DNA of 41,423 nucleotides from a virus (Duplodnaviria > Heunggongvirae > Uroviricota > Caudoviricetes). Positions 33,704 to 36,008 of the stretch are shown in pieces. Under the pieces are notes generated by a model. It was not told the DNA's origin, searched no databases, and saw nothing but the letters and a program-made list of their open reading frames with translations. The stretch lies in IMG/VR virus record IMGVR_UViG_2728369188_000008, positions 1-41,423 of that record; one strand, written 5' to 3'. Each line of letters begins with the position of its first letter. The first letter of the stretch is position 1. Both the position numbers and the translations under genes were made by a program.

Positions 33704-34033
33704 TTAGTCATCCATGGATGGATTGAGCTTATCTCGTGTTGATGTGGCAATTTTCCCAACATTTTTCAACCAAGATTTTAAGAAGGATATGTCGTCCTTA
33801 ATATCATGAATATCCTCATTCTTTATACGCTCAACCTTATCCTCTAAGCTCTCTATAGAACGCTCAATGCTAGACAGAGAGATTTTTAAGTCCCCTTGCT
33901 CACGTTCCAGTGAGGATTTGAGAGCACAATATTCGTTTTCTAGAATTCCTATTTTTTTTGTTAGAGAGTGCATTCGATACTCATACACCAAACCAGAAAC
34001 GACTAATGCAGCCAACAGAAACCATTCAAGCAC
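33704..34033 (-). CDS. Hypothetical membrane-anchored coiled-coil protein (109 aa), candidate superinfection-exclusion factor
   Basis: N-terminal TM helix LEWFLLAALVVSGLVY followed by a charged helical region; convergent with gp16-like; occupies the P22 sieA position. Confidence 0.45.
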   Translation of the reverse strand: MLEWFLLAALVVSGLVYEYRMHSLTKKIGILENEYCALKSSLEREQGDLKISLSSIERSIESLEDKVERIKNEDIHDIKDDISFLKSWLKNVGKIATSTRDKLNPSMDD

Positions 34034-34112
34034 ACCAACCTCCTTAGTTTTGAGCAGGATACCAGATGATGTATAGGAGTGGGAGTAAAGTTAGTCGGTG
34101 ATAGAACGGTGG

Positions 34113-34141
34113 TTGCATAATGATATCACGTGACGTAGAAT
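34113..34141 (+). promoter_or_regulatory. Candidate sigma70 promoter for the 34209-35233 operon
   Basis: TTGCAT (34113-34118), 17-nt spacer, TAGAAT (34136-34141); spacer contains the palindrome TGATATCA. Confidence 0.5.
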
Positions 34142-34208
34142 TACTGCGCATAGCGTGTATTCAATGGATACATAGCTATTGATAATCTCCGATAAGAAGG
34201 AGGTTTGT

Positions 34209-34775
34209 ATGAGCAATGAGACTAATGGGATTGATGAAATGTTTAGCTTGAACGCTGCCAAAGCTGGAGTCGCAATAGGTTTGCTATTACAGCAAGCTTC
34301 TGCGTTCAGTTGTGAGGTGGTTGTTACTGATAACGTTCAGCACGCTTACCATCAATCCTCATTCAGCAGTGAACGGGCTAATGATGAGCTTCATGAGGCG
34401 GTGTCTTCGATTAAAGAATTGTCTCGAATGCTGAAATACGCTTATCGTGTTCTTGCAAACGCTACCGATGAGAATGTAGACAATGTGTTGTCTATCATTG
34501 AACCAGAAAAGTCTCGATTGATAGAGCATCAATTGAGAGGACTTGAAGGGGCAATGAAATCGGTATTCAAAGAAGCTTCTGCTGATTTTAAAGAGATCGC
34601 AAGAGATATCTATATCGTTGTTGCTGATGCTAGATCTGCCGTAACTAACCTGAATAGTCTTATTAAACAACGCTCATGTGTTCCGGTTGTTTTTGATAGT
34701 TCCGTAGATATGGCTGGTTTGCGTGCGCTTGCTGAGCACGGGACTCGTGTGTTTCACTCTGGTAACTTCCACTGA
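34209..34775 (+). CDS. Hypothetical helical protein (188 aa), first gene of a two-gene accessory operon
   Basis: ATG at 34209 preceded by AAGAAGGAGG; no TM segment and no motif recognised; 8 nt upstream of the YafO-like gene. Track ORF 34179-34775 trimmed. Confidence 0.6.
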   Translation: MSNETNGIDEMFSLNAAKAGVAIGLLLQQASAFSCEVVVTDNVQHAYHQSSFSSERANDELHEAVSSIKELSRMLKYAYRVLANATDENVDNVLSIIEPEKSRLIEHQLRGLEGAMKSVFKEASADFKEIARDIYIVVADARSAVTNLNSLIKQRSCVPVVFDSSVDMAGLRALAEHGTRVFHSGNFH

Positions 34776-34783
34776 GGTAAAAC

Positions 34784-35233
34784 ATGCAAGTAACCGTGGA
34801 ATATAATCAGGATAGTTTTGACTATTTTTTCTCCCCGGTTTTTGTTGAGTTTCCTGATTTAAAACAAACACTTGTAGATGATTTTATCATCTACAAGTCT
34901 ACGGGAACGTTGCCCAGCTATTTTGGCAGAGACACCTCTTATCATCGGCCTCCTGATATTGAAGATGCAGGTCTTATGCACCTTCATTTAGCAATTGGTG
35001 AAAATAAATTTGAGCCAATAAAAAATGGCACAGATATCAGCACACCGCAAAAGTTGCAGTGGCATAAAACATCCAATACCGCTCTCGTTTATGCACAAAA
35101 TCTTTTTGATGAGAACAGGTATTCATTGATTGCTCTTTTTCATCCTGTAGCTCACATGTCTGCTAACAATCATAATAGAATGAGAGTGTTAGCAGGGTAT
35201 GCGAGAGACTTTAGAAACACTATGTTTGACTAA
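34784..35233 (+). CDS. YafO-like toxin-family protein (149 aa)
   Basis: Motifs DDFIIYK, LPSYFGRD, HLHLA, ALVYAQNLFDE, SANNHNRM and RDFR align with what I recall of E. coli YafO; GAGG RBS; intrinsic terminator follows. Confidence 0.55.
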   Translation: MQVTVEYNQDSFDYFFSPVFVEFPDLKQTLVDDFIIYKSTGTLPSYFGRDTSYHRPPDIEDAGLMHLHLAIGENKFEPIKNGTDISTPQKLQWHKTSNTALVYAQNLFDENRYSLIALFHPVAHMSANNHNRMRVLAGYARDFRNTMFD

Positions 35234-35257
35234 ACCCGCCGTCAGGTGGGTTTTTTA
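35234..35257 (+). terminator. Intrinsic terminator after the YafO-like gene
   Basis: ACCCGCC-GTCA-GGTGGGT hairpin followed by TTTTTT; overlaps the convergent mnt-like stop. Confidence 0.7.
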
Positions 35258-35496
35258 TCTTCTCCGTACATGCTACTGAGAGTCTTAAGAAGAGCCTCCC
35301 TAAATTTTTCAGATTCTTGTTGAGCAAAACCTTCTATTGATCTTGGTGATTTTTCTTCATCAATAGCAGCTTGCAAGATCATAACTATTTCTGAATTTAA
35401 TGAGCGTCCGTTTTTCGATGCTCTTATGGTCAGGTCGCGCTTGAGGCTATCTGGCATTCTTACGCTATATGGGGCTATGTCTCTAACCTTCGTCAT
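35242..35496 (-). CDS. mnt: Mnt-like ribbon-helix-helix repressor
   Basis: 84 aa; N-terminal RHH segment SVRMPDSLKRDLTIRASKNGRSLNSEIVMILQ; divergent from the arc/ant operon as in P22 immI. Confidence 0.75.
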   Translation of the reverse strand: MTKVRDIAPYSVRMPDSLKRDLTIRASKNGRSLNSEIVMILQAAIDEEKSPRSIEGFAQQESEKFREALLKTLSSMYGEDKKPT

Positions 35497-35605: not shown

Positions 35606-35758
35606 ATGGAAAAAGAAGTTAGCAGAATTTTGGTGAGAATGCCTCAGTCGCTAAAAGATGCGATTACAGGAAAGGCCAAAGAAGAATGCCGGTCGTTTAA
35701 CTCGGAAGTGATTAAGCGATTGCTGGACAGCCTGAAGAGAGAGGGGGTAGTGGTATGA
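35606..35758 (+). CDS. arc: Arc-like ribbon-helix-helix repressor
   Basis: 50 aa from the internal Met of track ORF 35570-35758; RHH segment VRMPQSLKDAITGKAKEECRSFNSEVIKRL. Confidence 0.7.
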   Translation: MEKEVSRILVRMPQSLKDAITGKAKEECRSFNSEVIKRLLDSLKREGVVV

Positions 35759-35946
35759 AAAACCGCAGATGTTGTTTTTGTGGGTGTAGTAAAGAAACGA
35801 CTGGCAGGGGCTTTGTTGTGTCAAAAAATACCGAAGAAGCAATTTGTGACTCATGCGTTACAGATATTGTTATTTTCATGCATGGCGAGAAGGGGTTAGA
35901 TGAAAAGCTAGAGAGTATTCCAGTTGAAGGCGCTGATAAAAGTTGA
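35755..35946 (+). CDS. Small Cys-rich (zinc-ribbon-like) protein, translationally coupled to arc
   Basis: 63 aa with CCFCGC...CDSC; GAGGGGG RBS; ATG overlaps arc stop (ATGA). Confidence 0.5.
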
Positions 35947-36008
35947 AGCCCCAACTGCGGGAACAGTCAGGGCTTCGGTATCAACAAATCGGATTAGGAA
36001 ATATTGAC

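Follow-up and report, generated by a model that had tools for sequence, protein, structure and literature searches.

The window analyzed here, a stretch of 41,423 nucleotides (nt) of viral DNA (positions 1 to 41,423 of IMG/VR record IMGVR_UViG_2728369188_000008), is a mosaic P22-like (Lederbergvirus) phage or prophage of Escherichia coli, the right half of which shows patchy 92-96% identity to CUS-3, Kapi1, phiv205-1 and others. It carries a cassette of two genes on the plus strand, the first (34209-34775) coding for a protein of 188 amino acids (aa), here called the partner, and the second (34784-35233) for a 149-aa YafO-family toxin, a putative mRNA interferase. Comparison of these sequences with their relatives makes it probable (about 0.7) that the two genes form a mobile YafO toxin-antitoxin (TA)-type module in which the helical partner represents a new, dedicated antitoxin family. 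The initial annotation of the window had described two tight co-oriented open reading frames (ORFs) separated by 8 nt, with coordinates that hold in our ORF check, and had suggested an undescribed TA module. That suggestion is supported by the finding of the partner only upstream of YafO_toxin genes, by a junction of the coupling type, by co-divergence of the two proteins and by purifying selection. We found no paper on this partner-YafO pair in the literature.

The 149-aa protein matched the Pfam family YafO_toxin (PF13957) with an E-value of 3.4e-22 and 78.9 bits (cutoff 25), its residues 37-145 covering positions 3-101 of the 101-position profile, and was 38% identical to YafO of E. coli K-12 over 120 residues (E 7e-20). 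The profile search asked for by the initial annotation returned the YafO family, as had been proposed there from motifs. In RefSeq the protein is WP_001198454.1, named "type II toxin-antitoxin system YafO family toxin". It scored 79 bits against the NCBIfam equivalog PRK09885, under the cutoff of 153, indicating that it belongs to a paralogous subfamily and is not the orthologue of K-12 YafO. The residues invariant in an alignment of the full diversity of the toxin subfamily and K-12 YafO (D33, F34, Y37, P44, F47, G48, Y53, H66, H68, Y103, E110, P121 and H124) were all kept, every invariant polar residue among them. The toxin genes are under purifying selection, with ratios of nonsynonymous to synonymous substitution (dN/dS, omega) of 0.02-0.16 where dS was unsaturated. 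Neither sequence nor profile search detected a relative of the toxin in the PDB, and its placement in the RelE/ParE superfamily rests on the literature, where PF_YafO is listed among 13 BECR-fold toxin families of that superfamily (PMC11980606). A palindrome within the toxin gene, ACTTGTAGATGAT-TTT-ATCATCTACAAGT (34870-34898), has a perfect stem of 13 base pairs (bp) and a 3-nt loop, the peptide encoded there being LVDDFIIYK. Salmonella P22-type alleles have a stem of 8 bp, and other alleles with the same peptide have none, so the palindrome is a lineage-specific feature and not a conserved element.

The partner (RefSeq WP_000064337.1) is "hypothetical" or "uncharacterized" in every public source checked and belongs to PHROG 8416, of unknown function. 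It had no significant match in Pfam, NCBIfam, PADLOC or, by sequence and profile, the PDB. Comparison with YafN, which has 97 aa against 188, gave nothing by BLAST (E 36) and a probability of 0.2% by hhalign. The AlphaFold2 model, built from a 21-sequence alignment, was all-helical (pLDDT 79.4, pTM 0.66), with helices at residues 16-37, 47-83, 90-97, 99-122, 125-156 and 168-184 and a core (56-188) of pLDDT about 90. A Foldseek search of the PDB and BFVD with this model returned no match at E <= 1e-3, and the structural neighbours were generic helical bundles only, which are uninformative. The partner was thus correctly described at the outset as helical, unrecognized and distinct from YafN, and no known structural or regulatory phage protein was matched by its profile or predicted structure. 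Across the family the partners share the motifs LRGLE, VAKARSA, LN.L..Q and F.S.ID...L..LA.HGT, and end in an invariant ...LA.HG..V..S..FH. They are also under purifying selection (omega 0.09-0.21 where dS was unsaturated).

To delineate the partner family, 5.8 billion proteins were covered by a word-indexed search, which gave six clusters at 90% identity, and 1.84 billion representatives by an exhaustive hidden Markov model search, which gave 23 clusters at 50% identity. This is a very small family, the members of which have 167-190 aa, save three short matches of 77-137 aa. More than 45 loci, with partner identities as low as 22%, were examined and in every one a PF13957 gene lies directly downstream of the partner homologue. 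YafO_toxin was downstream in 33 of 33 loci, on 20 IMG/VR viral contigs, and also behind all four of the most distant partner homologues tested (18-28% identity). A scan of genome contigs with a narrowed pattern yielded 6 loci. No third conserved gene or Rfam RNA was present in the cassette loci, and searching leader and cassette against Rfam gave no family.

The pair was found in P22-like prophages of Salmonella and of unidentified hosts, and in siphovirus tail-gene clusters and a lambdoid early region, where the upstream proteins of about 190 aa are partner homologues with 34-41% identity. The isolated phage HK639 carries it within the tail cluster with an 8-nt gap. In Pseudomonas aeruginosa phage vB_PaeS-D14L, reported with YafO as a toxin alone (PMC10449497), the partner precedes YafO, again with an 8-nt gap. 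It also occurs on 43 large Klebsiella plasmids, an IncFIB example keeping the 8-nt gap, and on chromosomes of Pluralibacter, Enterobacter, Pseudomonas fuscovaginae and Stutzerimonas. In E. whittamii and Klebsiella indica the YafO genes are of the K-12 type, with YafN upstream. YafO toxins therefore fall into two mutually exclusive partner classes, the K-12 type with YafN and the cassette type with the 188-aa family, and a second, dedicated partner class is defined for the YafO toxin family.

Two of these contexts deserve separate description. On the Klebsiella pneumoniae IncFIB plasmid p1-0213293972 (L050:3592-7062) the module and one small ORF lie between two identical IS5-family transposase genes, beside a lacZY cluster, which suggests mobilization as a composite transposon. 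In two metagenomic prophage fragments (L040:1315-3189 and L041:457-2331), the partners of which cluster with Pseudomonas aeruginosa sequences, the pair is co-oriented with and directly downstream of a CI-type repressor gene (HTH_3 and Peptidase_S24 domains). This is a typical lysogen-expressed position, echoing that of lambda rexAB after cI.

The junction of the two genes in the window reads TGA-GGTAAAAC-ATG (34773-34786, plus strand), the partner stop codon overlapping the toxin Shine-Dalgarno (SD) sequence, GAGGT, with an 8-nt spacer. The gap was exactly 8 nt in 31 of the 33 loci, with the junction F-H-TGA/GGT(G)..../ATG or TTG, so that the toxin SD overlaps the partner stop codon; the start is the weak TTG in about half of the toxin genes. 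This arrangement implies that translation of the toxin would be coupled to that of the partner. Coupling of this kind keeps an upstream antitoxin in excess.

Partner and toxin identities were correlated over 25 unique pairs (Mantel r 0.80), none of 5000 permutations giving a value as high. The partner diverges faster, with a mean identity of 46% vs 60% for the toxin, and conservation is highest in its C-terminal third (mean identity 60%). Adjacency, co-orientation, tight spacing and strict co-occurrence, as expected of a type II TA module, were all found. Taken with purifying selection, the exclusive upstream linkage, coupling junction and co-divergence support the view that the partner has the signature expected of a cognate antitoxin. 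Conservation of the pair at more than 45 independent loci, with both genes having homologues under purifying selection, goes well past what chance would give.

We propose that the YafO-family protein, as an endoribonuclease of the RelE/ParE superfamily, would cut mRNA and cause translation arrest, and that the 188-aa helical protein would neutralize it in place of a Phd/YefM-type YafN. Neutralization would most likely occur by direct binding, probably through partner residues ~139-188. Transcription of both genes would begin at a promoter of the moron type, located upstream of the partner gene, and end at a terminator shared with mnt. Since its ribosome-binding site (RBS) overlaps the partner stop codon, the toxin is proposed to be made only by coupled translation, below the level of the partner. 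The cassette moves as a unit among temperate phages, in the immI-proximal slot of P22-like phages, in siphovirus tail clusters and beside cI, and among plasmids. Such moron-like carriage is supported by the cassette's own terminator, the conserved promoter-like block, the variable slot, the IS5 flanks on plasmids and the position after CI. We infer toxicity, neutralization by binding, expression in the lysogen and a biological role for the module; as to that role, abortive infection or superinfection defence of the lysogen appears somewhat more likely than pure addiction of a prophage or plasmid. A more specific proposal, which we advance only tentatively, makes the cassette an anti-phage system of the abortive-infection type that consists of two genes, is as yet undescribed, and owes its distribution over Enterobacterales and Pseudomonas to temperate phages and plasmids. 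The partner would then act as antitoxin and as infection sensor alike, perhaps attached to the membrane by its conserved hydrophobic N-terminus, and its disturbance by a superinfecting phage would set the YafO RNase free. This, if true, would also account for the repeated reports of "orphan YafO toxins" in prophages.

Several observations weigh against the partner being an antitoxin and the cassette a TA or defence module. No helix-turn-helix, ribbon-helix-helix (RHH), AbrB or Phd domain was detected in the partner with Pfam or NCBIfam; a DNA-binding domain for autoregulation is common, not universal, in type II antitoxins. The partner is also atypical for a type II antitoxin in exceeding its toxin in size and in being a predicted folded helical bundle, in place of a small domain for DNA binding and a disordered tail. 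A moderately hydrophobic N-terminal segment of about 15 residues (..A.A.GLL.Q..; 34239-34320 in the window) is common to all partner homologues, and in the distant partners of Proteus, Providencia and Pseudomonas it resembles a Sec signal peptide. In the window partner an acidic N-terminus precedes the segment, and the maximum 19-residue hydropathy of 1.63 is borderline, not that of a convincing signal peptide or transmembrane helix. A secreted protein or lipoprotein was considered and is unsupported, given the acidic, borderline-hydrophobic N-terminus and the lack of a conserved Cys. The C-terminal third of the partner tracks the toxin best, by a small margin (r 0.82 vs 0.69-0.79 elsewhere), and is only suggestively a contact region with the toxin. 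In one comparison (L011 vs L027) the partners are closer than the toxins, a hint that the module may now and then recombine internally. The toxin has an acidic isoelectric point (pI 5.7) and its AlphaFold2 model, computed alone, is unreliable (pLDDT 53). The candidate promoter, TTGCAT (34113-34118) and TAGAAT (34136-34141) separated by 17 nt, agrees with the consensus at 8 of 12 positions and was not called by the scan. Among the PADLOC-DB v2 defence models there was no hit for the toxin and only a chance-level ZorA hit of 14 bits for the partner.

A TA module need not defend against phages, and its role might instead be addiction, post-segregational killing that stabilizes the prophage or plasmid; this we regard as somewhat less probable, and the module may also serve both ends. 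The pair is on 43 large Klebsiella plasmids, with IS5 flanks, up to three copies occur per E. coli genome, always in prophages, PADLOC gave no match, and type II TA systems on mobile elements classically serve addiction (Leplae 2011, PMC3141249). Integrated prophages, however, are seldom lost by segregation, the slots that hold the cassette (beside the sieA position and after cI) typically house superinfection-exclusion or defence morons, and many prophage TA modules have turned out to be abortive-infection systems (reviewed in PMC11980606). The partner could also be an accessory that the toxin cannot do without, acting for instance as a sensor at the membrane, as a subunit that activates or targets the toxin or as a regulator, any neutralization working otherwise than by sequestration. 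Its size and predicted stable bundle unlike classic labile antitoxins, its lack of a DNA-binding domain, the conserved N-terminal segment that is signal-peptide-like in distant members, and the leader hairpin sequestering its SD, suggestive of regulated translation, all point that way. We consider this unlikely, because the upstream position, the coupling with weak TTG toxin starts, the faster evolution of the partner and strict co-occurrence fit an antitoxin, and a toxin from a family of validated toxicity would call for a neutralizer, for which the loci offer neither a third conserved gene nor an Rfam RNA; the net acidic N-terminus of the window partner, with its hydropathy of 1.63, is also unconvincing as a signal peptide or transmembrane helix.

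It is improbable that the module serves the phage itself in its lytic cycle, with the RNase shutting off host mRNA or processing transcripts, its inhibitor setting the timing and read-through from the late operon providing expression. The cassette is indeed co-oriented with the flanking late or structural genes in every phage context (P22-like, siphovirus tail clusters, HK639), so that late antiterminated transcripts would include it, but such co-orientation is usual for morons. The cassette is moreover dispensable, being absent from HK620, CUS-3, P22 and nearly all of 50,697 deposited phages, is found on plasmids and beside integrase or cI as well, and comes with a terminator of its own and a promoter-like block that is conserved. 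Least probable, and by our estimate very remote, is a decaying, non-functional remnant with an inactive YafO-like protein. The toxin score of 79 bits against the equivalog cutoff of 153, the acidic pI and the low-confidence structure prediction would agree with decay, but 55 E. coli genomes carry the two genes intact and with identities of at least 99%, dN/dS is 0.02-0.21, all family-invariant residues are kept and the architecture is conserved from Escherichia to Pseudomonas.

Compared with YafN-YafO of K-12, encoded in the dinB-yafN-yafO-yafP operon, the cassette has a toxin of the same Pfam family, PF13957, with the invariant residues kept, and the same order, the neutralizer (here putative) upstream of the toxin with tight spacing. 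The two differ in that the partner of the cassette is a 188-aa helical bundle unrelated to the 97-aa Phd/YefM-type YafN of K-12, and in that the spacing is 8 nt with stop/SD overlap, whereas in K-12 it is 2 nt. The cassette is carried by prophages and plasmids, whereas the K-12 system belongs to a chromosomal, SOS-regulated dinB operon. We know of no solved structure in the YafO family, and of only one antitoxin studied for it. Leplae et al. found YafO toxins associated either with partners of the Phd type or with "associated-by-guilt" ones that were unclassified and untested, and at that time on neither plasmids nor phages (PMC3141249). A paper on YafN-YafO of avian pathogenic E. coli (APEC) was set aside as prior work on the cassette, since it concerns the chromosomal operon instead, and the paper on the LF82 Gally prophage lists no toxin there.

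One toxin family with alternative, unrelated antitoxins is likewise known from the partner swapping of type II TA systems in the RelE/ParE superfamily (PMC3141249, PMC11980606). The partner family described here differs in being delineated, exclusive to YafO and not promiscuous, and mainly phage- and plasmid-borne; the cassette would be another case of such swapping, yielding a putative new antitoxin family for YafO. Prophage YafO genes annotated as toxin alone, as in P. aeruginosa phage vB_PaeS-D14L and in HK639, are in fact paired. The cassette occupies accessory slots of temperate phages in pathogens, namely extraintestinal pathogenic (ExPEC) and APEC strains of E. coli, Salmonella and P. 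aeruginosa, and is found on Klebsiella plasmids, and phage exclusion or element stabilization, if true, would bear on prophage ecology and on host range in phage therapy.

Similarities with the exclusion morons of lambdoid and P22-like phages (P22 SieA, lambda RexAB) are the variable slot, here between gene 16 and mnt, and the presence of an own terminator. As with lambda RexAB, the pair in some relatives is directly downstream of a CI-type repressor. SieA is an inner-membrane blocker of injection (PMC10883804), whereas the cassette encodes a predicted cytoplasmic RNase-type toxin and has no sequence relationship to SieA or to any PADLOC model. HK620 shares the slot, with an HkcB 98% identical to that of the window, and carries the unrelated hkcC in place of partner and YafO.

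The initial annotation had given the cassette its own promoter and terminator, of which the terminator stands. A terminator scan and the sequence place an intrinsic terminator at 35232-35253 (plus strand), directly past the stop codon of the 149-aa ORF, consisting of AAACCCGCC-GTCA-GGTGGGTTT and a T-run, with a 9-bp stem of 5 GC pairs, and used back-to-back by the convergent mnt-like gene; the shared element as a whole is annotated at 35232-35263. As regards the promoter, the sequence at 34113-34141 (plus strand; TTGCAT-17-TAGAAT) is only the weak consensus match described above, lying in a conserved non-coding block (34034-34208). Its position is kept in four related P22-type loci (L005, L006, L009 and L021), and the 175-nt block shows 81% column identity, exceeding that of the partner's own coding sequence.

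The partner ATG lies six bases past an AAGGAGG SD. RNA folding predicts a leader hairpin over this SD (34184-34205, plus strand), in which an anti-SD, AAUCUCC (34184-34190), pairs with GGAGGUU (34199-34205) over 7 bp; the minimum free energy is -19.7 kcal/mol (z -2.5). The otherwise dissimilar leaders of the sibling subgroup have an equivalent, invariant CUCC-N10-GGAG stem, and as the stem is invariant it offers no covariation evidence. The hairpin suggests that translation of the partner may be structurally regulated by sequestration of its SD.

In that siphovirus/lambdoid subgroup about 125 nt upstream of the partner gene are conserved (L011:4300-4425, L013:4297-4422 and L014:4300-4425, with equivalents in L016 and L022-L035). 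This region contains a palindrome-bearing promoter-like box, cTTGCTCAaaaaTGAGCAAtggTATTAGAAT, followed by a GC-rich hairpin, a T-run and an invariant GTCAGAGGTACTCC...AAGGAG..CGTTATG. The hairpin stems vary by locus (GCCGAAGC/GCTTCGGC, CCAAAC/GTTTTGG and GCTGAAGG/CTTCGGCC), and the P22-type subgroup of the window is without that hairpin. The region had no match in Rfam; by its sequence it looks like a promoter with a terminator or attenuator and an SD-sequestering leader, or possibly a small RNA.

The coding DNA of the cassette was found in 55 of 5,426 complete E. coli genomes, among them APEC O1, S88, ATCC 11775 and ST95 strains. These copies were at least 99% identical, all chromosomal and one to three per genome, the loci examined being P22-like prophages; no DNA match was found in 50,697 deposited phage genomes. 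The examined copies sit between gene 16 and mnt/arc/ant, in agreement with the location between the last ejection-protein gene and the Mnt/Arc/Ant module first noted for the window. The content of the slot differs among phages, HK620 having hkcC and vB_EcoP-611R6 a 322-aa ORF. Homology of the cassette to other E. coli prophages has its left boundary exactly at 34031, the hkcB start codon.

Upstream of the cassette, on the minus strand (33704-34033), lies a gene for a 109-aa homologue of HkcB, with a GTG start after AAGGAGG. The protein has an N-terminal hydrophobic helix and a coiled coil, belongs to PHROG 5962, of unknown function, and gave no alignment with P22 SieA at E <= 100. The gene order in P22 is 16(+), sieA(-), orf59a(-), mnt(-), so the 109-aa gene has the position and orientation of sieA and the cassette occupies the adjacent orf59a slot by the mnt terminator. 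The earlier placing of the cassette at the sieA position is therefore right for the neighbourhood and has to be amended for the cassette itself. The same annotation had counted the divergent membrane protein as part of the cassette, which does not hold: in other carriers HkcB is absent or replaced by unrelated genes of 107, 111+75, 140 or 297 aa, indicating an independent neighbour. The RBS regions of hkcB and the partner gene (34031-34045 and 34197-34211) form a 15-nt inverted repeat because both genes use AAGGAGGTT(T/G)GT(A/G)TG.

Convergent to the cassette is a Mnt-like RHH gene (35242-35496, minus strand; Pfam Arc). This RHH protein was considered as the real antitoxin and rejected, the helical partner being kept in contexts without an Arc/Mnt gene. 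In the APEC O1 prophage the YafO cassette is separated from the mnt-like gene by a gene for a 178-aa ClpP-like protease (L001:9252-9788, minus strand; Pfam CLP_protease, 44 bits), which seems to share an operon with mnt; the protease gene is absent from the window. A 63-aa Cys-rich ORF (CCFCGC...CDSC, two CxxC pairs) is present between arc and ant (35755-35946, plus strand), its place being taken in other loci by small ORFs that differ in length; a zinc finger of the ClpX type was considered for it and is unsupported, with no match in Pfam. The sar antisense RNA of P22 immI was identified at 35941-36007 on the minus strand (Rfam RF00262, 71.6 bits against a gathering threshold of 43), where it overlaps the ant start region, as in P22.

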